DNA from: an uncultured Gammaproteobacteria bacterium
Lineage (GTDB): Bacteria > Patescibacteriota > Microgenomatia > Levybacterales > UBA12049
Reading direction: 5' to 3'
Assembly: GCA_964637955.1 (NCBI GenBank)
Contig: CAZWXQ010000002.1
Coordinates: forward strand, 7,782-71,781
Length of the DNA: 64,000 nt
Below, piece after piece: positions 2,674 to 34,372 of the stretch; position 1 is the stretch's first letter, and each line of letters starts with the position of its first letter. The translations under genes were made by a program, and so were the position numbers. The notes beneath the pieces were generated by a model. It made no database searches. It worked only from the letters and a program-made list of their open reading frames with translations, and was not told the origin of the DNA.

Positions 2674-3807
2674 ATGAGTGCTAAAAATAGAATTGGAATT
2701 ATAGGAGGCGGACAGTTGGGAAGAATGATGACAGTTGAAGCGCTCCGCATGGGTTTTACGGTGACTGTAGTTGATCCCACTCCAAATTGTCCGGCAGCGC
2801 AAGTTGGTGCTAAGCAAATCCTTGCTGCGCTAACCGATGAAGAAGCTGCAAAGCGCCTTGCGAAAGAATCTGATTTCCTCACTTTTGAAATTGAGCACAT
2901 AAATACCCAAGTTTTAATAGATCTTAGAAAAAAAGGAGTTAAAATAAATCCTTCACCTGAAACTCTGGAAACCATAAAAGATAAATTAAAACAAAAAATA
3001 TTTCTTAAAGATGCTGGAATTCCCGTGGCGCCTTTTATGGAAATTAAGGATGAAGAAAGTATTCTTAAAGCTGCAAAAGAATTTGGGTATCCGATGATTT
3101 TGAAAACTAGATTTGGAGGATATGATGGAAGAGGAAATGCTGTAGTTAAAAATGCTAAGTCTATTCAGCCAGCGCTTGAATTGTTTGGAGATAAGCCAGT
3201 TTATGTTGAAAAAAATGTAGACTTTATAAAAGAGCTGGCTGTCATGGTGGCAAGAAGTCTTTCGGGGGAAATAGTGCTTTATCCAGTGGTAGAGACAATT
3301 CATAAAAATAATATTTGCCACACAGTTTTAGCTCCAGCTCCTATCAATCCAAAAAGCCGAAAACAGGCAGAAAAATTGGCAATCAAGACTATGGAAAAAC
3401 TTGGTGGCGGCGGAGTTTTTGGGGTAGAAATGTTTTTAACAAGCGCTGGAAAAGTAGTCGTAAATGAAATAGCTCCAAGAGTCCATAATTCTGGGCACTA
3501 TACCACAGAGGCGTGTATAACTTCTCAATTTGAGCAACATATACGGGCAATTGTAGGCCTTCCATTAGGAGAAGCTGAAATGGTGGTTCCTGCTTCTGTT
3601 ATGGTAAATATTTTGGGAGACAGAAAAGGAAATGCAGAAGTTACAGGTCTGGATAAATCTCTTAAAGTTCCTAGAGCATCAATTCATATATATGGAAAAG
3701 CAGAAACCAAACCTGAGCGAAAAATGGGACATGTCACAGTTACCGCAAAAAGTCTTACCACAGCAAGAAAAAATGCAAAACTAGCGAGAGAAAGGATTTC
3801 GATTTAA
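2674..3807 (+). CDS. purK: N5-carboxyaminoimidazole ribonucleotide synthase (ATP-grasp)
   Basis: N-terminal [13 protein letters not shown] Rossmann/ATP-grasp motif, PurK-like length and order purC-purK-purE. Confidence 0.85.
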
Positions 3808-3808
3808 G

Positions 3809-4357
3809 ATGGCAAAGAAAACATTGAAATTAAAGAATCCTGTCGTAGGAGTAATTATGGGATCGGATTCAGATTTAGAAGCGATGATGGGTGCGGTTAA
3901 TATGTTAAATCAAGTAGAAATTCCGCATGAAGTTAGGATAATTTCTGCACATAGAACTCCTGACGCTATGACAAATTATGCTAAATCAGCGCGCGGTAGA
4001 GGACTTAAGGTAATTATCGCAGCAGCTGGTGGATCAGCCCATCTTCAAGGGATGACTGCTGCCAATACAATTTTGCCTGTAGTTGGAGTCCCGATATCAA
4101 GCAGGCATTGGAGTGGGCAAGATTCGCTATTATCGGTTGTGGAAATGCCAAATGGTGTTCCAGTGGCTACTGTTGGAATTAACAAATCGGAAAATGCTGC
4201 ACTTTTAGCAGCTCAAATTTTGGCAACTTCAAATGAAGAAATTGCTCTAAAGTTAGAAAATTTGAGAGAAAAAAGAGCAAAAAAAGTTAGTATAGCTGAC
4301 AAGCAAATTTCACTCCAAGGAGTACAAGCATATATTGATAAATTGAAAAAAAGTTAG
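3809..4357 (+). CDS. purE: N5-CAIR mutase
   Basis: [10 protein letters not shown]...AHRTPD...AAGGSAHL...PVVGVP classic PurE motifs. Confidence 0.9.
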
Positions 4358-4459
4358 ATTATTCCCAGCCCCTCGTTTTATTGAGCCTCTTCTTTTATAG
4401 GAGTCAATAGCAGTGAAATAGAAGGTTGACATTTGAGGCTAAGTGAGCCACTATAAGTA

Positions 4460-5380
4460 GTGATAGTGGATAGCGAATTTTCACGAAAAAAGCTTCTGGT
4501 TTTTGGAGCACTGCTTCTTGTGGTGTTGGCTATTCCTGTAACTCTCTACACCGCATTAAATCTTAATAATAAAACAGAAACTAGATCTCAAGCTGCAGAA
4601 GTTCTTGAAGACACTGTTATTGTTGCCATAAATGGTGAACAGATTAAAAAATCAGATATCAGAAAAATTGCAGAAGAGCAGAATGACCCTTCGTCAGTTG
4701 ATCAACAAGCTTTAGCTGATGCTTTAGATACTCTCATTGAAAGAAAAATTTTAGATAAAGCTGCAAATGATTTAAACATTACACCAGATCAGGCAAGACT
4801 TGCTAAATTTGAAGATGATGGCCTATCAGAAACAGAAGCAAAGTACGAAGCTTTAAGAGAGCAAGTGATTCTAAATGCTGTTAATTCAATTGAGATAATT
4901 ACAATTGGCTTCTGGAATCCTCCTACTGTGGGTGTTGCTGCTTTAAGCGTTGATGAACAGAATGATGCTGCCACTCAGCTTTCAGCAGGAACGACTGCTC
5001 TTGACGAAATAGAATCAGGATTAAACGCGGGAGATGATCCTTTGGAAATAGCAGATGCTATTAATGCTGATAATCCTGAGCTTAGAGCCGTTCTCGCTGT
5101 TAATGGATATATAGTAGGATCTTTAAATCAGGAAGATAGAGCTTTCGCAAGCCAGCCTATTATTGAGGAGTACGGAGATACAGCATTTGATGCTCAAACG
5201 AGAGATGCCATTTTTAATACTGCAAAAAATTCTATTAAAAAAATCTCAAATACTTCGGAAAATAGAGGAGGCATGGTGGTTAAAGTTGTTGAAAAAGGAG
5301 ATATAAATGGATCAAGCTCTTATGATAGTTGGTTAACTGAGCAAAAAGCCAGCTCAGTCCAACAAGTTAATTCATTATGA
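4460..5380 (+). CDS. membrane-anchored hypothetical protein (possible SurA-N/PrsA-like chaperone-type region)
   Basis: N-terminal TM anchor LLVFGALLLVVLAIPVTLY; AINGEQIKKSDIRK segment weakly resembles SurA_N; first gene of 3-gene + strand surface operon (4-nt overlap with next gene). Confidence 0.35.
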   Translation: MIVDSEFSRKKLLVFGALLLVVLAIPVTLYTALNLNNKTETRSQAAEVLEDTVIVAINGEQIKKSDIRKIAEEQNDPSSVDQQALADALDTLIERKILDKAANDLNITPDQARLAKFEDDGLSETEAKYEALREQVILNAVNSIEIITIGFWNPPTVGVAALSVDEQNDAATQLSAGTTALDEIESGLNAGDDPLEIADAINADNPELRAVLAVNGYIVGSLNQEDRAFASQPIIEEYGDTAFDAQTRDAIFNTAKNSIKKISNTSENRGGMVVKVVEKGDINGSSSYDSWLTEQKASSVQQVNSL

Positions 5381-6132
5381 AATACATGAAAGTTTTAGTA
5401 ATTTTTGCAGCGGTTTTTATAGCAGCATTTTTAGTGGTTCAGAAGAATAAGACTATGGCGGCAGAGCAGTCATTTATCCCAAATTGTTTGGGAATTTCAG
5501 GAAAGTTTTATGCAAATAAAACCTGGAAAGGTGGCTACATTATGGTTGGTTGCGCAGGAGACGATGGTGGAGCAGTAAATCAAAATCCAAACAGATGGTG
5601 TAAGGGTCAAGTTCAAAAAGTGTATCCTGGAAAACCTTTCAGACTCACAAAATGTTCATGTTTTGGTAAAGAAGGATGTCTAAAAATCGGTAAAGAGTTG
5701 TCTTTATCAACCACCCTAAATGCTAACAGGAAATATGCAATTTCAGTTGTTAAAAGAATTGATGAGATGCCTCAATTTAAAAATAATGGTTGCAGAATTA
5801 ATAAGATAGGCCAAATGTGTGGAACAAATACTATGATAATTAAGCCTAGAATTAAGATCACTTGTGATGTGCCTACCGGTACTCCAACCAGAACCAAAAC
5901 TCCTACTCCGACTGGAGGAGTATGTCCAGTTCCAGATAAGGTTCAAAATGTAAAAGTTACATGTCCAAGCTGTTCGACTTCAAGTTCGAATTCGAATTCA
6001 ACTACTACGACAACCACATTAACAACAACAGATAATGTTTCTCCTTCTCCTGAAGTTACTCCAACAATAACTGTAGCGCCAAGTGAGGCATTAACATCGA
6101 CGCCAACGCCAACAGTGGAGCCGACAAACTAA
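5377..6132 (+). CDS. secreted Cys-rich protein with C-terminal Thr/Pro-rich linker
   Basis: Signal peptide MKVLVIFAAVFIAAFLVV; >12 Cys; C-terminal TPTRTKTPTPTGG...TTTTTTLTTT...TPTPTVEPTN low-complexity linker. Confidence 0.4.
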   Translation: MKYMKVLVIFAAVFIAAFLVVQKNKTMAAEQSFIPNCLGISGKFYANKTWKGGYIMVGCAGDDGGAVNQNPNRWCKGQVQKVYPGKPFRLTKCSCFGKEGCLKIGKELSLSTTLNANRKYAISVVKRIDEMPQFKNNGCRINKIGQMCGTNTMIIKPRIKITCDVPTGTPTRTKTPTPTGGVCPVPDKVQNVKVTCPSCSTSSSNSNSTTTTTTLTTTDNVSPSPEVTPTITVAPSEALTSTPTPTVEPTN

Positions 6133-6133
6133 T

Positions 6134-7249
6134 ATGAATATAAATAAATGGTCAACAAATAAAAAGTTATTGGCAATTTTAGGAATAGTACTTATTATTG
6201 GTGGAATTATTACTACTATTCTTATAGTTCAAAAAAGACAGGATGGAAGAGCTAAAGCTGAAAAATCTACTACGCTTTCACTTACGCCAGCAACTCAGTC
6301 AGTCCCAAGCGATGGAAATACGAGTCTTGATATAAATATTGATCCAGGTAAAAACCAGGTTAATTTAGTAAAGATAACTTTGAAATATGATAAAGATAGA
6401 TTTATCGTACTTGCTAATCAATTTACTCTTAATTCTGATTCAGGTATGACCATTCTTAACGGACCTGTTGTGTCTGAAGGAAGCTTTTCAGTTGTATTAG
6501 GAACCGGGAGTGATCCGACAAAAGTTATTCAAAGCGTCCAAAAGCTTGGAAAATTAGATTTGCATGTTAAAGCTACAGCACCGCTTGGATCTTCTGAGGT
6601 TTCCTTTGATTATGCACAGACTGAGGTTCGCTCAATTCAAGCTAATGATGCGTTTAACGAAAATGTATTATCTAGCGCTACACCTGCAACTATAACTATT
6701 GAAGCAGTCTGTCGGCCAAATATCTCTACTTGTTCTTGGGACGAGCTTGAAGGAGCTTCTTCATATCATTATGTAATTACAAATGTTACTGATAAAGTTG
6801 AATTTTCTAAAGGGGACACTACCGAAAATTCTATTGATTTTACTTCCATTCCTGGAAAAAATTATAAATGTGAAGTTACAGCAAAAAATTCTTGTGGTGG
6901 AGTTGGGGAGGCTGGAGTTGCGAATAATACTTGCGCGCTTCCGTCTCAATCGCCTACACCTACCACGCCTGGAAATACATCAACGCCAACTCCAACTCCT
7001 ACGAATGGTCCTTCTAGTACACCTACTCCTACGACACCAGGATCATCTGTAACGCCCACGCCTACAACACCTGGTGTAACCTCAACGCCCACGCCTACAT
7101 CTTCTATTATAAGCTCTCCTACGCCGACCAGTGAGTTTGGGGTTAGTCCTATTCCTTCGCTTCCACCGACTGGAAATCCAGTAGTGCTTGGTGGCGTCGT
7201 AGGGGCATTGTTTATAATTATCGGAGGAATAGCACTTTTACTTCTATAA
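6134..7249 (+). CDS. cell-surface cohesin-like domain protein with FN3-like module, PT-linker and C-terminal LPPTG sortase-type sorting signal
   Basis: N-terminal TM/signal; region VNLVKITLKYDKDRFIVL...GKLDLHVKATAPLGSSEVSFD resembles cohesin beta-sandwich motifs; CSWDELEGASSYHYVITNV FN3-like; PT repeats; ends SLPPTGNPVVLGGVVGALFIIIGGIALLLL. Confidence 0.5.
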   Translation: MNINKWSTNKKLLAILGIVLIIGGIITTILIVQKRQDGRAKAEKSTTLSLTPATQSVPSDGNTSLDINIDPGKNQVNLVKITLKYDKDRFIVLANQFTLNSDSGMTILNGPVVSEGSFSVVLGTGSDPTKVIQSVQKLGKLDLHVKATAPLGSSEVSFDYAQTEVRSIQANDAFNENVLSSATPATITIEAVCRPNISTCSWDELEGASSYHYVITNVTDKVEFSKGDTTENSIDFTSIPGKNYKCEVTAKNSCGGVGEAGVANNTCALPSQSPTPTTPGNTSTPTPTPTNGPSSTPTPTTPGSSVTPTPTTPGVTSTPTPTSSIISSPTPTSEFGVSPIPSLPPTGNPVVLGGVVGALFIIIGGIALLLL

Positions 7250-16795: not shown

Positions 16796-17491
16796 ATGAA
16801 ACAGGACGTAGAGTACGAAGTAAAATTTAAACAAACCTTAAAAAGAAATCCTCATAAAGGTTTGTATGTAGCTTTCGAAGGAATTGATGGAGCAGGGAAA
16901 AGTGTTCAAGTAGAGCTTTTAGAAAAATATCTCAATAAGGTCGGTAAGAAAAGTCTTATTACATTCCAACCAAGAAGAGATGGTCCTGTAGGGAAGCTCA
17001 TTAATGATATTCTTCAGGGAAATGTAAAAGTTCCATCTGTTTCACTTCAATATCTTTTTACTGCAGACAGAATTATTGATCACCTAAATCATATAGAGCC
17101 AGCACTTAAAGAGGGAAAAGTGGTAATTTCTCACAGATGTATGTGGAGCAATTTGCCATACGGGCTTTTAGATAAGCAGCTAGTAGATTATGAATCTGAC
17201 GAAGCTAGAATTATTGATGTAGCACACGGGCTTTTTTCTCACTATAATCAATTTATAATACCTGATCTGACTTTCTATCTTAAGATTTCTGCGAAAATTG
17301 GAGTAGAAAGACTTGAAAAGAGACACGCGGGGCTTGAGATGTACGAGAAGAAAGGTAAGATGGAAAAAGTCGCAAAAGGATATGAGTGGGAAATTAATAG
17401 ATTTCCTGATGAATTTATAACGATTGATGGGGAAGAAGCGCCTGAAAATGTTTCAAGAGAAGTTATAAAACACGTTGAAAAATATTTATGA
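16796..17491 (+). CDS. thymidylate-kinase-family P-loop kinase, paralog 1
   Basis: P-loop FEGIDGAGKS, DR(I)ID motif after YLFTADR, paralogous to next gene. Confidence 0.6.
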   Translation: MKQDVEYEVKFKQTLKRNPHKGLYVAFEGIDGAGKSVQVELLEKYLNKVGKKSLITFQPRRDGPVGKLINDILQGNVKVPSVSLQYLFTADRIIDHLNHIEPALKEGKVVISHRCMWSNLPYGLLDKQLVDYESDEARIIDVAHGLFSHYNQFIIPDLTFYLKISAKIGVERLEKRHAGLEMYEKKGKMEKVAKGYEWEINRFPDEFITIDGEEAPENVSREVIKHVEKYL

Positions 17492-18162
17492 GTAAAACAT
17501 ATCACGTAGAATTTGATCTTGATTTTAGGAGAAATGAATTTCCAGGAAAATTTATAGTTCTTGAGGGAATTGAGGCATCTGGAAAAACGACTCAGGCAAA
17601 TATTCTGGAACAGAAATTTCCTGGAGCATTCCATACGAAAAATCCTACTTCGAGTAATGAGATTGGGAAATTTGTTCGAGAAAGAGTTCTCGGAGGGAAA
17701 ACTGATATCCCACCGGTAGCATATCAATATTTGTTCGCGGCGGACAGAGAAATTGATCAGCAGAAAGTTATTGAAAATTTGAAAAAGGGTGTAACTGTAA
17801 TTTCTGATAGATATTTTTGGTCAAGTGTGGCATATGGAATTTCAGATCGAAGCGGAACAGATTATGAGAATTTTGAGGAGGTTTCAGTGGTATCGCTTAG
17901 TCTTCTTTCTATGTATCACCAATTTATCATTCCTGATCTTACAATTTATCTGGACGTTTCACTTGAAGAGTCTTTAAAGCGCATGGAAGGATCAGAGAAG
18001 CACACTGAAATTTATGATAATCATGAGACAAATGTAAAAGTGAAAAAAGGTTATGATTGGTTAATACAGAAATTTCCTGAAGAATTTAGTATAGTTGATG
18101 CAAATAGAAGTGAAGAAGAAGTAACTCATGAAATTCTAAAATTAGTTGAAGGAATTAGTTAG
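17488..18162 (+). CDS. thymidylate-kinase-family P-loop kinase, paralog 2
   Basis: P-loop LEGIEASGKT, YLFAADREID, HQFIIPDLTIYLDVS, KKGYDWLIQKFPEEF all parallel paralog 1; 4-nt overlap with it. Confidence 0.6.
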   Translation: MSKTYHVEFDLDFRRNEFPGKFIVLEGIEASGKTTQANILEQKFPGAFHTKNPTSSNEIGKFVRERVLGGKTDIPPVAYQYLFAADREIDQQKVIENLKKGVTVISDRYFWSSVAYGISDRSGTDYENFEEVSVVSLSLLSMYHQFIIPDLTIYLDVSLEESLKRMEGSEKHTEIYDNHETNVKVKKGYDWLIQKFPEEFSIVDANRSEEEVTHEILKLVEGIS

Positions 18163-18230
18163 TAATTTAAAATTTGAAATTCTAAATTTGAAATGAATTT
18201 TAAATATTAAAAATTAAAAAATTAAGTATC

Positions 18231-18304
18231 GAATGTCGCCGCTAGAGCGGGATCCCGATTGAAAACTATCATCGGGAAAAATTAAAAATTATAAATTGAA
18301 AATT
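18231..18304 (+). repeat. double-hairpin repeat element copy 1 (CCGCTAGAGCGG + CCCGATTGAAAACTATCATCGGG + AAAATTAAAAATT...)
   Basis: Near-identical to 57936-57990 (reverse orientation) and similar to 28951-28997; hairpins show compensatory changes. Confidence 0.6.
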
Positions 18305-18331
18305 TGAAAGAGATTCTGAATCAAGTTCAGA

Positions 18332-18880
18332 ATGACAACTATGATTATTGCACCAAAAGAATTACTTAAATTAGTTAAAAAAGATAAATTAGTTGAAAAT
18401 TTATCCGAGCGAGAACTTACAAATCCTGAAGGTGCTGGATTTGATCTGCGACTTGGTGAGGTTTTTAAAATTTCCGGAAAAGCTTTTCTAGGAGAAACCC
18501 ACAGGCAAACTCCTGATATCGAGTCGATAAAAGTATGGGATCCAAAGAAATTGAGCTCAATCAAGATTAAACCTGGAGATTTTTATCTGGTTAAAACCAT
18601 CGAAAAAATAAATTTGCCTCTCGATCTTTCAGCTGTAATTATTCCTAGGACCACAACTTTCAGATCTGGTCTCTTTATTCGAACCGGACCAATTCAGCCG
18701 GGGTATAGTGGAGAACTTACATTTGGTCTGAAAAATGAAGGTCCAGTGACAGTAGAAATCGAAATGGGAGCTAGGTTTGTCCATCTTATTTTCCACGAGA
18801 TAAAAGGAACGGGTGCTAAATACCGCGGCCAATGGCAAGGCGGCCGAGTTAGCGCAACCAAAAGAGAGAAGCAAGTCTAA
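18332..18880 (+). CDS. dCTP deaminase/dUTPase-superfamily protein (second Dcd-like paralog)
   Basis: GFDLRLG, IQPGYSGELTFGLKNEG, FVHLIFHEI parallel Dcd motifs but sequence diverged from dcd at 16135. Confidence 0.55.
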   Translation: MTTMIIAPKELLKLVKKDKLVENLSERELTNPEGAGFDLRLGEVFKISGKAFLGETHRQTPDIESIKVWDPKKLSSIKIKPGDFYLVKTIEKINLPLDLSAVIIPRTTTFRSGLFIRTGPIQPGYSGELTFGLKNEGPVTVEIEMGARFVHLIFHEIKGTGAKYRGQWQGGRVSATKREKQV

Positions 18881-18899
18881 GTGGTGCTATAATTGCCGA

Positions 18900-19280
18900 A
18901 TGTCAGAAAGAATATTGTATTCAGGTGAATATCAACATGAAGCAGGCCCAAATTATTCTGTATTAGGTCTTGCTAGTGCTGGGGGAGCAAATGCCTTGAA
19001 GGATCACACTTTTGTTGGAGATGCGTTATCTGTAGCAGGATATGAAGAAACTCATGAAGTTACTGGCTATCCAATAGCTGTGTATAGAGTTCAGATTGAA
19101 GGAGTTGAAGGTTTAATATATGTTAAGTCCGATGGGCATGTTCCAGAAGGTGTGGATTTGCCCGATCAAGTAGTTGTTTATGAGCAGCTCACTCAAGGAG
19201 CGTACCCCATAGGGCAGCTGTGGTGGAGACCAGAAGAAAATTTTAATCAACACTTTACTCCACTAGAAACACAAGTCTAA
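18900..19280 (+). CDS. hypothetical protein (ORF-track start 18813; ATG at 18900 MSERILY more plausible)
   Basis: ORF track; no motif. Confidence 0.3.
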   Translation: MSERILYSGEYQHEAGPNYSVLGLASAGGANALKDHTFVGDALSVAGYEETHEVTGYPIAVYRVQIEGVEGLIYVKSDGHVPEGVDLPDQVVVYEQLTQGAYPIGQLWWRPEENFNQHFTPLETQV

Positions 19281-19281
19281 A

Positions 19282-19623
19282 ATGAAAAAAATTACAAAAA
19301 TAAATTTACGGGAAATTCCACTTGAGGATGCACATGGAGGATCAGGTAAGAAACAGGTTTTAATCAATTCTGATCATCTTGAAAGCGCTCATTGGGACGG
19401 ATTTACAAAGGGATATCTGCAGGCTGGAGGAGAATTTGATTGGCATAGTCATGAAAATATCGATGAAGTATTTATAGTTATTTCAGGAGAGGGAATCTTT
19501 AGAAACGGCGATGAAAGTACTACTTACGAAAGAGACGATGTTGTTCGAATTCCTGCAAATTCAAAGCATAAAATAGAAGCGGCAACTGATAGTGAATTTT
19601 ACTTCGTGAGAGTTAAAGTTTAG
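19282..19623 (+). CDS. cupin-domain protein
   Basis: Two-His cupin motif region DWHSHENIDEVFIVISGEG and small beta-barrel size. Confidence 0.55.
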   Translation: MKKITKINLREIPLEDAHGGSGKKQVLINSDHLESAHWDGFTKGYLQAGGEFDWHSHENIDEVFIVISGEGIFRNGDESTTYERDDVVRIPANSKHKIEAATDSEFYFVRVKV

Positions 19624-19768
19624 CTTCGTCATTCTGTTGTATTTAGAATAAGCGGATTCTGGATGCTTCGCACCAGAATGACGGAAAGAATTGACCAAAA
19701 TGACGAGGGGTTTGATAATGTTCGTCATTCTGGTAAGCGAAGAATGAGCGCATCCAGAATCATCTGAT
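19624..19768. repeat. cluster of hairpin-forming repeats (ATTCTGG...CCAGAATGACG units, both orientations) upstream of GIY-YIG gene
   Basis: 19655-19684 GATTCTGGATGCTTCGCACCAGAATGACGG; 19723-19761 reverse-orientation copy; partial copy 19624-19636. Confidence 0.6.
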
Positions 19769-20056
19769 ATGAAAAAAGGAGGCTACGTTTATATAATGGC
19801 AAATAGCCGACCTACTTTATATACGGGCGTGACTAATGATTTGGTCAGAAGAGTTTTTGAGCATAAGAATAATTTAGTTCAAGGTTTTACTGCAAAATAT
19901 AATTTACACAAGCTTGTTTATTATGAAGTTTTTGAAGCAATTGAACAGGCAATAATTCGCGAGAAGCAAATAAAAGATATGGACAGAAAAGATAAATTGA
20001 CTATGATTTCTAAGTTTAATCCTGAATTTAGAGATTTATATTCCGAGATTAGATAG
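19769..20056 (+). CDS. small GIY-YIG nuclease-family protein
   Basis: GYVYIM...[16 protein letters not shown] matches GIY-YIG (UvrC-N-like) signature, 95 aa. Confidence 0.7.
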
Positions 20057-20160
20057 CAATTGATTCTGGTCAAGCCAGAATGACGAAAGTTAATTTCGTA
20101 AGCGATGATTCTGGATGCTTTGCACCAGAATGACGTAAAAATAAACCTGAATGACGAAAA
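20057..20160. repeat. hairpin repeats downstream of GIY-YIG gene (direct copies of upstream unit)
   Basis: 20062-20085 GATTCTGGTCAAGCCAGAATGACG; 20107-20135 GATTCTGGATGCTTTGCACCAGAATGACG; AATGACG again at 20151. Confidence 0.6.
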
Positions 20161-20221
20161 ACTTTGATATATTTTGATTGGGTTGCAAAATGCTTCTAAA
20201 AAACATATAAATTAGGTTGTA

Positions 20222-21199
20222 ATGGCAGTGAAACACCCCGAACAACAATATTTAGACATAGGAGCAGAAATCCTCAAAGACGGCATCAAACAAAAAGACC
20301 GCGGAACTGGAGTCACTACTTATTCTCTTTTTGGTCGAAAATCTGAGTATGATTTATCAGAAGGTTTTCCGATGCTTACCACGAAAAGAGTTTATTGGAA
20401 TGGGGTCGTTCAAGAGCTTTATTGGTTTTTTTCAGGTCAAACCAACATCAAATATCTCGTTGATCACGATGTTCATATTTGGGATGACTATCCATATAAA
20501 ATCTTTAAAGAAAAAAATCCAAAGTCCAAGATGACTAAGGATCAGTTTATAGAAAAAATAAAAACAGATAAAAAATTCGCGAAGGATAATGGAGAACTTC
20601 CTCGCATTTATGGAGAAATGTGGAGAAAATGGCCAACTCGCAAAAAGGGAAAGACAGTTGACCAACTTCAGTGGATAGTGGATGAGGTAAAAGCAGATCC
20701 AAATGCCCATAATCTGATCGTAAATTCATGGAATCCAGAGTATCTTTATTCGATGGCAGATAAGAAGGACGCAAGTCGATTTCCAATTTGTCATAACATG
20801 TATCAGGTAAGTAATCGTGGTGGTAGCCTTGATTTGATTTTATATCAAAGAAGTTGTGACTATTTCCTTGGAGTACCATTTAATATAGCTAGTTATTCAC
20901 TTCTTTGTGTAGTTCTGGCAAACATTCTTGGCTTGAAGCCAGGCAAATTCATTCACATGTATGGGGATATTCATATTTACGAAAATCACATAGATCAGGT
21001 AAAAGAAGAGCTAAAAAGAAAGCCAAATCCATTTCCGAAAGTTAAGTTAAATGGAAAATTAAAAAAGCTTGATGATTTTAAGCCTGAAATGGTGGAACTG
21101 ATTGGCTACAATCCTCACAAAACTATAAAAGCAGAGCTTACTGTCGCCGGTGGATTTTTTGAGGAGAAGAAAAAGAAAAAAACTTCTAGGAAAAAATGA
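20222..21199 (+). CDS. thyA: thymidylate synthase (ThyA family, with enlarged insert)
   Basis: Collinear with ThyA: LTTKR, catalytic Cys in FPICH, YQRSCD, FLGVPFNIASY, SWN(P) Asn retained (dUMP-type). Confidence 0.8.
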   Translation: MAVKHPEQQYLDIGAEILKDGIKQKDRGTGVTTYSLFGRKSEYDLSEGFPMLTTKRVYWNGVVQELYWFFSGQTNIKYLVDHDVHIWDDYPYKIFKEKNPKSKMTKDQFIEKIKTDKKFAKDNGELPRIYGEMWRKWPTRKKGKTVDQLQWIVDEVKADPNAHNLIVNSWNPEYLYSMADKKDASRFPICHNMYQVSNRGGSLDLILYQRSCDYFLGVPFNIASYSLLCVVLANILGLKPGKFIHMYGDIHIYENHIDQVKEELKRKPNPFPKVKLNGKLKKLDDFKPEMVELIGYNPHKTIKAELTVAGGFFEEKKKKKTSRKK

Positions 21200-21552
21200 G
21201 AATCTATCTTAGCCACTCTAGGAAATTTGATTTTAAAAAAGAATTATATGAGCCGCTAGAAAATTCAGGTCTAAATATCGATTTTATTTTCCCTCACAAG
21301 AAGTCTGAAACATCATTTGATACAAGGTCGCTTTTTATAAACGATAAACCAGACCTAGTTTTAGCAGAAGTTTCAAATCCTTCGCTTGGGGTAGGAATTG
21401 AGATTGGGTGGGCGAACGACGCTGAGATTAAAATAGTCTGTATTTATAAGAATGGTTCTAAGATCTCCGAATCATTGAAAATGGTTTCAAAAACATTTAT
21501 TGAATATTTAGATAGTAAAGATTTAATTGAAAAACTTAAAAAATATGAGTGA
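21196..21552 (+). CDS. nucleoside 2-deoxyribosyltransferase/DNPH1(Rcl)-family protein
   Basis: GVGIEIGWA resembles NDT catalytic-Glu motif GLGMELGYA; size 118 aa; 4-nt overlap with thyA. Confidence 0.5.
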   Translation: MRIYLSHSRKFDFKKELYEPLENSGLNIDFIFPHKKSETSFDTRSLFINDKPDLVLAEVSNPSLGVGIEIGWANDAEIKIVCIYKNGSKISESLKMVSKTFIEYLDSKDLIEKLKKYE

Positions 21553-22015
21553 TTCTGAAAAGACAAAGTCTGCTGAGATTCCCAAGACCAGATCGGTTGG
21601 AATCCTAGTAATTAAAGACGATAAAGTACTTCTTGTAGAGCATAAAGAGGCTGCGGGTCATCCGACTGGAATGTGGGGCTTGCCTTCTGGTAGACCAGAC
21701 TTCGACGAAGAAGAAGATGTGGATGTGGCAATTAGAGAGCTTGGTCAGGAGACAGGGCTCGTGGTAACAAGGGATGATTTACATGTATTTCCTGGCAGTT
21801 ATTATGAAGCTGCGCTGCCAAGAAAAGATGGTTCAATAATAGACTTTACATGGCAAGTATTTAATGTTTCAAATTTCACCGGAGATTTGCGTCCAAGCGA
21901 AGAAACAAATCCCTATTGGAAGACCATGGAGGAAATGAGAGAGCTAGATCGAAATGGAAATTTACTACCAAATACTATTAATGCAGCAGAAGCAGGAATG
22001 AGGAAAAATGTTTAA
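21527..22015 (+). CDS. Nudix hydrolase
   Basis: Nudix box GRPDFDEEEDVDVAIRELGQETGL (Gx5Ex7REUxEExGU). Confidence 0.7.
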   Translation: MKNLKNMSDSEKTKSAEIPKTRSVGILVIKDDKVLLVEHKEAAGHPTGMWGLPSGRPDFDEEEDVDVAIRELGQETGLVVTRDDLHVFPGSYYEAALPRKDGSIIDFTWQVFNVSNFTGDLRPSEETNPYWKTMEEMRELDRNGNLLPNTINAAEAGMRKNV

Positions 22016-22475
22016 CCACGCCCCAAAAGATTACGAGTGTCCACTGTGTTTGATAGTGAACGGGAAAGATAATCCTGATCGTTTTGCCAAAGCTTCTGAC
22101 ATTTTTTATAAAGATGAATTTGTAACAGGATTTATAGGAGGAAAATGGTGGGATGCAAATAAAGGTGTTACTTTAGTAATTCCAAATAAACATTTTGAAA
22201 ATATTTATGATATTGATGAAGACTATGGACATAAAGTTTTTGATTTTTCAAAGAAACTGGCATTAGCTCTTAAGCAAGTTTATAAATGTGATGGAGTTTC
22301 GATTCGTCAGCATAATGAACCATCAGGAAATCAGGACGCTTGGCATTATCATGTTCATGTCACGCCAAGATATAAGGGGGATAATCTGTACATAAATAAT
22401 GATAAAAAGTATTGGGTAACAGCAGAAGAAAGAAAACCATATGTCGAAAAATTAAAGGAATATTTTAATAAATGA
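22008..22475 (+). CDS. HIT-like (histidine triad) family protein
   Basis: WHYHVHV histidine-triad-like motif near C-terminus. Confidence 0.5.
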   Translation: MFNHAPKDYECPLCLIVNGKDNPDRFAKASDIFYKDEFVTGFIGGKWWDANKGVTLVIPNKHFENIYDIDEDYGHKVFDFSKKLALALKQVYKCDGVSIRQHNEPSGNQDAWHYHVHVTPRYKGDNLYINNDKKYWVTAEERKPYVEKLKEYFNK

Positions 22476-33490: not shown

Positions 33491-34372
33491 ATGAAAAATA
33501 TTACCCTTGAAGAATTATTGGAAGCTGGATGTCATTTTGGACATCAAGTTTCTCGTAGTAATCCAAAATCTAGAGATTTCGTTTTTGAAGCTCGTGATGG
33601 AATTCATATTATCGATCTCGCAAAAACTAAAGAAGGACTTGAAGAAGCTGGAAAGTTCATTAAGTCAGTTGCACAAAACCCATCCACAAACATCGTTATC
33701 GTAGGAACTAAAAGACAAACTCAAGAAGTATTAAAAAAAGAATTAGAGAGAGTTACGAAAGAAATCTCTGGTGAAAATGGAATTTTCTATGTTACTAATA
33801 AATGGATAGGTGGACTTCTAACCAACTTCTCAGAAGTGTCAAAAAACTTTAAAAAACTCAGTGACCTTATTCATAACCTAAACACACCAAGCGCGCAAGA
33901 AGGATATACCAAAAAAGAAATCGGCGGATGGAGCAAGGAAAGAGATAAGCTCGAATCATTTTATGGTGGAGTTTATAAGCTTAATAAAGTTCCTGATGTT
34001 TTATTTATTATCGATTCACATCTTGAGCATTTGGCTGTAGACGAAGCAAATAAAATGAAAGTTCCAACTGTAGCAATTACTGATACTAACTCTGACCCAG
34101 CACTCGTAACATATCCAATTCCAGCAAATGATGATGCTGTGGGGAGTTTGGAACTTATTATTGGTTATATTCTTGATGCTTGGAAAGAGGGAAGAAATTC
34201 TGTAAAAATAGAAAAGCCTAAAGAAGAAAAAAAGCCAGAAGTTAATAAAGTTAAAGCCGGCGCATCAGCTCAAGAAGAGTTAGCGCAAGCACTTAAAGAA
34301 GAAAAGAAGAAGCAAGAACCAGGAATCAAGAATAAAGAAGAGGTTGAGAAGAAAATAGGAAAGAAGGATTAA
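33491..34372 (+). CDS. rpsB: 30S ribosomal protein S2 with Lys/Glu-rich C-terminal extension
   Basis: LEAGCHFGHQ, IHIIDL signatures of S2. Confidence 0.9.
   Translation: MKNITLEELLEAGCHFGHQVSRSNPKSRDFVFEARDGIHIIDLAKTKEGLEEAGKFIKSVAQNPSTNIVIVGTKRQTQEVLKKELERVTKEISGENGIFYVTNKWIGGLLTNFSEVSKNFKKLSDLIHNLNTPSAQEGYTKKEIGGWSKERDKLESFYGGVYKLNKVPDVLFIIDSHLEHLAVDEANKMKVPTVAITDTNSDPALVTYPIPANDDAVGSLELIIGYILDAWKEGRNSVKIEKPKEEKKPEVNKVKAGASAQEELAQALKEEKKKQEPGIKNKEEVEKKIGKKD

Follow-up and report, generated by a model that had tools for sequence, protein, structure and literature searches.

A probable Ssn-family nuclease gene bracketed by inverted hairpin repeats upstream of thyA in a Patescibacteria-like genome

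We analysed a 64-kb stretch of DNA from an uncultured, Patescibacteria-like bacterium (contig CAZWXQ010000002.1, positions 7,782 to 71,781; hereafter the window, whose own numbering is used throughout), focusing on the region 19624–20160 between a cupin gene (19282–19623) and thyA (20222–21199). With a probability of roughly 0.85, we assign this locus as an ssn–SRM cassette, in which a gene coding for an Ssn-family nuclease of 95 aa is flanked by inverted copies of the hairpin presumed to be cognate to this enzyme, the Ssn-related motif (SRM). A system of this kind was already published in 2025 (PMC11893778). Modestly new are the Patescibacteria host, a hairpin variant with the stem ATTCTGG that the published search string misses, a stop codon embedded in the hairpin of relatives, and comparative evidence for exact cassette ends, empty sites and hairpin pairs resembling miniature inverted-repeat transposable elements (MITEs).

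The reference protein is SsnA from Neisseria meningitidis (NMV_0044/NMB0047), which consists of a single GIY-YIG domain in 94 aa and belongs to the cd10448 entry of CDD (GIY-YIG_unchar_3) (Chenal et al., Nat Commun 2025, PMC11893778). SsnA binds the hairpin repeat NTS, CGTCATTCCCGCGMAVGCGGGAATCYRG, only as single-stranded DNA (ssDNA) and nicks it a few nucleotides to the 5′ side; it is inactive on the reverse strand, on double-stranded DNA (dsDNA) and on RNA. Cleavage depends most on the three nucleotides preceding the palindrome and binding on the C that directly follows it, and residues Y6, Y17 and E64 were shown to be essential. Ssn homologs occur across phyla and are accompanied by related hairpins, the SRMs: in 71% there is an SRM nearby, in 42% both sides carry one, and Rickettsia is listed among the SRM-rich genomes (PMC11893778).

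The sole intact open reading frame (ORF) of the region encodes 95 aa and matches Pfam family PF01541 (GIY-YIG) over residues 5–74 with E=7e-13 and no other Pfam family, which confirms the 95-aa GIY-YIG gene named in a preliminary description of this DNA. Its AlphaFold2 model is one compact domain with the GIY-YIG fold (pLDDT, the predicted local distance difference test score, of 92.3), and among solved structures UPF0213 proteins and Slx1 come nearest. Across aligned homologs from Patescibacteria and proteobacteria, Y18, R28, H32, E65 and N84 never vary and Y8 hardly does; the catalytic residues are predicted to be Y8, Y18, R28 and E65. The proteobacterial homologs carry Y7, Y18 and E65, which correspond to the published Y6, Y17 and E64 shifted by one, and the window protein carries Y8, Y18 and E65; this match to N. 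meningitidis SsnA is drawn from residue spacing and not from an alignment with SsnA itself.

As proxies for the family, we used GIY-YIG ORFs adjoining exact copies of the published NTS consensus in viral contigs (IMG/VR), where canonical NTS is abundant: the scan matched at least 120 stretches, with six such ORFs among the matches listed. In pairwise, full-length comparison, the window protein is 43% identical to the ORF of locus L274 (82 bits, E = 6e-27) and 48% identical to that of locus L297 (99.8 bits, E = 3e-34), and it scores 22–26 bits against the UPF0213 structures. L274 (7785–8165) consists of NTS on the plus strand, an ssnA-like ORF of 103 aa and NTS on the minus strand, situated between the portal and terminase-large-subunit genes of a prophage-like contig. 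UPF0213/YhbQ-type proteins (PDB 1zg2, 1ywl) and Slx1 share the same minimal GIY-YIG fold, but the UPF0213/YhbQ type has only 29% identity in structural alignment, belongs to a separate CDD family and has no known association with SRM hairpins. A search of the PDB returned no Ssn structure.

The public gene call P0001 (86 aa) begins at M10 of the window protein (window 19769–19798). With that start, the first β-strand and the conserved Tyr8 would be lost; since residues 1–9 are conserved in homologs, we take the ATG at 19769 as the true start.

The hairpins are concentrated around the gene to a degree that shuffled DNA does not reproduce. With at most one mismatch, CCAGAATGACG has seven matches in the window, all inside 19627–20156, compared with 0.33 ± 0.64 in dinucleotide-preserving shuffles, none of which (0/100) reaches seven; the pattern ATTCTGG-N3-30-CCAGAAT has four matches versus 0.02 expected. 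The preliminary description had counted at least five palindrome copies around the gene, and the seven matches bear this out as four intact units (B, D/E, F and G) and three decayed copies or half-sites (A, C and H; Table 1). The example units that it quoted are correct, and the direct repeats that it placed on both sides are real: they are units B and G with adjoining bases (19655–19687 versus 20107–20139; 94% identity over 33 nt).

Each intact unit, read on its own strand, has the form CGTCAT-TCTGG-loop-CCAGAAT-C, with a 7-bp stem (ATTCTGG/CCAGAAT) flanked by a non-palindromic CGTC (5′) and by a C (3′); all four fit CGTCATTCTGG...CCAGAATC. The two proximal hairpins are inverted around the gene with their CGTCAT ends pointing outward: D/E, on the coding strand, stops 7 nt short of the ATG, and F, on the strand opposite to the gene, starts 5 nt after the stop codon. 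Unit A, with a 5-bp stem and an A replacing the trailing C, begins 3 nt past the stop codon of the cupin gene, and B is its partner in a convergent pair. Folded as ssDNA, units B, G and F reach −7.3, −7.0 and −5.5 kcal/mol, respectively (z = −3.7, −4.0 and −2.5 versus shuffles); the fold of A is weak (−3.5 kcal/mol), and C and H gave no ssDNA fold.

Table 1. Features of the cassette and its surroundings (window coordinates)
Feature	Position	Strand	Sequence or description	Remark
Unit D/E	19723..19761	+	Proximal upstream SRM: CGTCATTCTGG-20 nt-CCAGAATC	Cassette left end
ssn-like gene	19769..20056	+	95-aa single-domain GIY-YIG nuclease	ORF, Pfam, AlphaFold2, homology
Unit F	20062..20085	-	Proximal downstream SRM: CGTCATTCTGGCTTGACCAGAATC	Cassette right end
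Unit B	19655..19683	-	Extra intact SRM: CGTCATTCTGGTGCGAAGCATCCAGAATC	Upstream of gene
Unit G	20107..20135	-	Extra intact SRM, 94% identical to B	Downstream of gene
Unit A	19627..19650	+	Decayed SRM: CGTCATTCTG-8 nt-AGAATA	70% to D/E
Unit C	19695..19705	-	Decayed half-site: CGTCATTTTGG, without partner arm	Motif count
Unit H	20146..20156	-	Decayed half-site: CGTCATTCAGG, without partner arm	Motif count
Solo variant hairpin	18312..18337	-	TGTCATTCTGAA-CTTGA-TTCAGAATC	tmk–dcd spacer, just upstream of dcd

The locus thus shares with the Ssn/NTS system a single-domain GIY-YIG protein of about 95 aa with conserved Tyr, Tyr and Glu, a gene bracketed by inverted hairpins on both its 5′ and 3′ sides (the NTS-ssnA-NTS layout), and a repeat made of CGTCAT, a palindrome beginning ATTC... 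and a C, which matches NTS exactly over its first 8 nt (CGTCATTC) and its last 5 (GAATC). It differs in its stem, 7-bp ATTCTGG as opposed to ATTCCCGCG in NTS, and in its AT-rich loops of 5–20 nt. The host is Patescibacteria-like, from a phylum that PMC11893778 does not mention, the 64 kb at hand show no amplification, numerous dispersed SRMs being typical of some hosts but not required, and most Patescibacteria relatives have the stop codon inside the downstream hairpin.

To define the cassette, we compared loci encoding proteins 74–86% identical to the window protein. They occupy six gene neighbourhoods, between cupin and thyA, dcd and thyA, SecF and YqeY, DprA and RNase H, GluRS and Ham1, and peptidase S51 and a tRNA-editing domain. 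In all five contexts with DNA, the upstream SRM is on the coding strand and ends 3–17 nt before the aligned gene start, and the downstream SRM is on the opposite strand, either over the stop codon or no more than 12 nt from it. When the DNA of the five contexts is aligned, similarity extends from (C/T)GTCATTCTGG to CCAGAATGAC(G/A), which are exactly the outer ends of the SRMs, and the flanks are unrelated. A groundwater metagenome locus (L003; protein 86% identical) represents the minimal form: dcd, upstream unit, gene, downstream unit, thyA, with 39 nt of the upstream unit identical to D/E. The same SRM layout is found in L274, with canonical NTS, and in L191.

In three of the five contexts (L009, L012 and L222), the ORF enters the downstream hairpin, reading ...CAG ATT CTG GxC AAx CCA GAA TGA, so that the protein ends in the tail ...QILDKPE. 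In the window and L003, 15 nt inserted directly ahead of the downstream hairpin bring the stop codon forward.

The presence of the cassette varies among relatives, as the preliminary description had suggested checking. None of 80 metagenomic loci with ThyA 61–84% identical to that of the window has a window-type cassette upstream of thyA; tmk-dcd-thyA synteny is common among them. The gene content between dcd and thyA is itself variable, with nothing, a cupin gene or a deaminase gene in this position: the locus with the closest ThyA (L136, 84%) has a gap of 22 bp, and another (L137, ThyA 82%) has the deaminase gene. In L151, the cupin gene and thyA overlap by ATGA, which makes this an empty site, and relative to it all 598 bp of the window intergenic region are an insertion. 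L191 carries an ssn gene of 50% identity (1288–1660) in the opposite orientation between dcd and thyA, and its SRMs have other stems (GTCATCCCGAAC... and GTCATGCTGAAC...); it is an independent second insertion of such a cassette in the dcd–thyA spacer.

Hairpin pairs are also inserted without the gene. In L194, a convergent SRM pair (1616–1676) adds 72 nt to dcd, cleanly and in frame, so that the product gains 24 aa compared with the window and L137, and a further pair (4452–4507) is situated in an intergenic spacer. In-frame insertion into a gene is a feature of Rickettsia palindromic elements and MITE-like repeats as well, a likeness that applies to the related loci and not to the window locus and that, for the Rickettsia elements, concerns behaviour.

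Such hairpins are widespread, judging from a scan of 185,579 species genomes for ATTCTGG-N3-30-CCAGAATGACG. At least 120 stretches matched, with hosts including Acidobacteriaceae, Methylophilaceae, Methylococcales, Ignavibacteriales, Dehalococcoidia and Patescibacteria. The expectation that the hairpin recurs elsewhere, raised in the preliminary description, therefore holds for other genomes in many phyla, but inside the 64-kb window no copy lies away from the gene. Among the matches listed, the base after the palindrome, which the search left unconstrained, is C in 121 of 135 units, and the next base is a pyrimidine in 117 of 135. Because this trailing C plus pyrimidine corresponds to the "CY" of NTS, we consider the ATTCTGG-type hairpins genuine SRMs. 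A tblastn search of 120 genome tiles with a hairpin found a GIY-YIG gene in only two and most copies are solo; the figure of two is a lower bound since the tiles are fixed 8-kb blocks. The 209 hairpins in genome tiles include, among the matches listed, 15 gene-less convergent SRM pairs.

One tile, from an Ignavibacteriales metagenome-assembled genome (L084), contains seven convergent SRM pairs within 8 kb (3082–7090). The two arms of a pair often differ in stem there, ATTCTGG or ATTCTGA being combined with ATTCCGG or ATGCTGAA; these mixed-stem pairs indicate that several SRM specificities coexist and combine in one genome.

The sequences themselves show the anatomy, the homology, the cassette ends and the patchy presence among relatives; by analogy with the characterised homologs, we can outline how the cassette might work. 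The hairpin would form only in ssDNA, such as arises in replication, in repair or when transforming DNA is taken up. Once folded, it would be bound by the nuclease, whose recognition would require the stem sequence together with the GTC and the C that adjoin it on the 5′ and 3′ sides, respectively; the nuclease would nick the hairpin strand about 3 nt 5′ of CGTCAT, sparing the reverse strand, dsDNA and RNA. The predicted nicks would fall to the left of 19723 on the top strand and to the right of 20085 on the bottom strand, i.e., just outside the cassette, since the proximal SRMs are on opposite strands with CGTCAT outward. The idea, put forward in the preliminary description, that the nuclease acts on its flanking hairpins gains support from this match to the published behaviour of the Ssn family (PMC11893778). 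The extra units B and G and the decayed units A, C and H may remain from local duplication or from insertion more than once. Overall, the cassette would be an accessory insertion, currently or formerly mobile, that landed between the cupin gene and thyA; we regard it as probably mobile, at least formerly.

Several observations weigh against this interpretation. A target-site duplication at the cassette ends was sought in the five-context alignment and none was seen. Single-strand excision as in IS200/IS605 is not obviously possible, because the SRMs are inverted and leave one cleavable site per strand. The ATTCTGG-type unit has no dispersed copy in the 64-kb window and is confined to the surroundings of the gene. 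Unit D/E folds marginally better than its shuffles (z = −1.8), and its minimum-energy fold uses an alternative inner stem. The Ssn assignment rests on proxies, namely homologs flanked by canonical NTS, and not on SsnA or cd10448 itself (the homology criterion of the published work is E < 1e-10 to N. meningitidis SsnA; PMC11893778); a homolog search seeded with a betaproteobacterial homolog returned no Neisseria-named entries. Finally, the published SRM search string, HGTCWYN(0-2)YYVSBRHN(0-5)WNVSBRGN(0-2)RNCYNB, built from 29 genomes of four phyla (PMC11893778), finds nothing on the plus or the minus strand of the window. It calls for a stem that is longer and GC-rich and tolerates no loop above 5 nt, and it misses the window units because these have 7-bp stems and AT-rich or long loops. 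We record this mismatch against the string as it stands; it is a limit of the search heuristic and not a failed functional criterion.

We considered alternative explanations of the locus. The strongest is that the cassette is an autonomous selfish mobile element, moved by Ssn-driven transposition or homing and without host function, with the gene-less SRM pairs as non-autonomous, MITE-like derivatives. This is a statement on what the cassette is for and does not conflict with the biochemistry that goes with the ssn–SRM reading; we consider it a possibility somewhat short of even odds. It would account for a sharp-ended block conserved in six gene neighbourhoods, for the lack of the cassette at this site in relatives, including the empty site of L151, and for the independent cassette of other specificity in L191. 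The canonical NTS-ssnA-NTS unit between phage portal and terminase genes, the convergent pairs among the listed hairpins and the clean in-frame insertion in dcd point the same way. A mobile element would, however, have to manage with one cleavable SRM per strand in the minimal cassette, and we know of no strand-transfer activity for single-domain GIY-YIG nucleases. The five-context alignment shows neither target-site duplication nor conserved target, the 64 kb contain a single copy, and the strong conservation of the protein (70–86% identity across lineages) also fits a host function. The likeness to insertion sequences was itself remarked on by the authors of PMC11893778, who compared the NTS-ssnA-NTS layout to these and to repetitive extragenic palindromes with their associated tyrosine transposases (REP/RAYT) and offered the insertion-sequence idea only as a hypothesis.

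A domesticated function appears unlikely. Here, in line with a proposal made for Neisseria, the nuclease would cut incoming single-stranded transforming DNA at SRMs and thereby modulate recombination or nucleotide salvage, and the flanking copies would be a historical footprint. In N. meningitidis, SsnA lowers transformation with NTS-bearing DNA about 5-fold (PMC11893778), and in one relative the ssn gene adjoins dprA. The window copy is embedded in a same-strand cluster of deoxynucleotide metabolism (17488–22475) comprising tmk, dcd, a 155-aa ORF, the cupin gene, the cassette, thyA, a deoxyribosyltransferase-like gene, NUDIX and HIT. This link is not conserved, since the neighbourhoods differ between relatives, which argues against domestication. 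Moreover, an effect on transformation requires SRMs across the genome or donor DNA, whereas in the window they occur only around the gene, together with the variant at 18312. The absence of dispersed copies in 64 kb leads us to favour a selfish, at least formerly mobile element over a domesticated function.

The arrangement is reminiscent of REP sequences, or bacterial interspersed mosaic elements, and their RAYT proteins (TnpA-REP of the IS200/IS605 superfamily): a small nuclease gene flanked by inverted hairpin repeats, a conserved non-palindromic tail on the hairpin that is recognised as ssDNA, and gene-less hairpin pairs dispersed in genomes. The RAYT-like arrangement of the preliminary description thus stands as far as layout is concerned, the same likeness being drawn in PMC11893778, but the protein is not a RAYT. 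The repeats enclose no gene other than GIY-YIG, and the lack of an HUH/Y1 transposase rules RAYT out; the two nucleases are unrelated in fold and chemistry (GIY-YIG here, HUH/Y1 there), the tail is CGTCAT and not GTAG, and no covalent tyrosine intermediate is expected here.

Regulation at the RNA level, with the hairpins serving as terminators, attenuators or a 5′ untranslated element for the GIY-YIG gene or thyA, is very improbable. The hairpins do lie in the 5′ and 3′ untranslated regions of the gene, and a promoter-like site (TTGACC-17-GATAAT, 19691–19719) is situated just upstream of D/E. However, the same oriented motif is also present in pairs that lack the gene, within a coding sequence and across many phyla, and strand-specific non-palindromic flanks facing outward on opposite strands make no sense for a single transcript. 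The characterised homologs do not bind RNA (PMC11893778). We found zero terminator-like sites in 19200–20400 and no T-run after any stem, and an Rfam search of 19000–20700 at a permissive E-value gave chance-level matches only and no family. Together with the opposite strands of the flanks, these results largely refute the terminator or attenuator that the preliminary description had held in reserve.

We give just as little credence to a classical free-standing GIY-YIG homing endonuclease (I-TevI/Seg-like) cutting the double-stranded thyA region of cassette-less relatives: the fold, the variable presence of the cassette and the proximity to thyA (phage T4 td carries I-TevI) would suit it, but relatives of 74–81% identity reside in unrelated neighbourhoods and not beside thyA. 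I-TevI, Seg and I-BmoI were rejected as models, the window protein being a single domain of 95 aa with no DNA-binding module; NCBIfam gave only a sub-threshold match to TIGR01453 (group I intron endonuclease; 14.5 bits versus a cutoff of 56.05), and PHROGs gave no match. The homing-endonuclease cassette of the preliminary description is hence upheld as an accessory and probably (once) mobile unit, but not as a classical two-domain enzyme acting on double strands.

Returning to the ssn–SRM cassette, these comparisons bear on a question left by PMC11893778, namely whether NTS-ssnA-NTS units move: sharp ends, empty sites, gene-less pairs and the in-frame SRM-pair insertion in dcd are first comparative hints of real mobility. 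A bolder proposal is that the Patescibacteria cassette actively moves and represents a new mechanistic class of mobile element, in which a 95-aa GIY-YIG nuclease that recognises ssDNA hairpins drives movement and gene-less SRM pairs are non-autonomous derivatives that insert in frame into essential genes such as dcd. We put this forward tentatively, as the less likely outcome.

The window protein would add a Patescibacteria member with a distinct hairpin specificity, the ATTCTGG stem, to the Ssn site-specific ssDNA nucleases, a family of interest as tools for manipulating ssDNA. This variant escapes the published degenerate motif, so that censuses relying on the motif undercount the family. 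For annotation, the system explains a very common class of "CGTCAT...ATGACG" hairpins and odd C-terminal tails such as ...QILDKPE; hairpins of the SRM class are probably the source of spurious or odd C-termini in many called proteins.

Two further hairpins of the window lie outside the cassette. The solo hairpin in the tmk–dcd spacer has the architecture of the SRM units with a different stem (ATTCTGAA) and folds as ssDNA with −5.6 kcal/mol (z = −2.6); it may be an SRM relative with another specificity. The ATG listed first for dcd (18332) is located inside the ATGACA tail of this hairpin, and since dcd of relatives begins three codons later, the real start is probably 18341. The second, GTCAT-ATTTTGGA...TCCAAAAT-C with a 20-nt loop, is found on the plus strand at 33531–33570 within the ORF 33491–34372, and may be an SRM inside a gene or may have arisen by chance, at 0.4 such matches expected per window.

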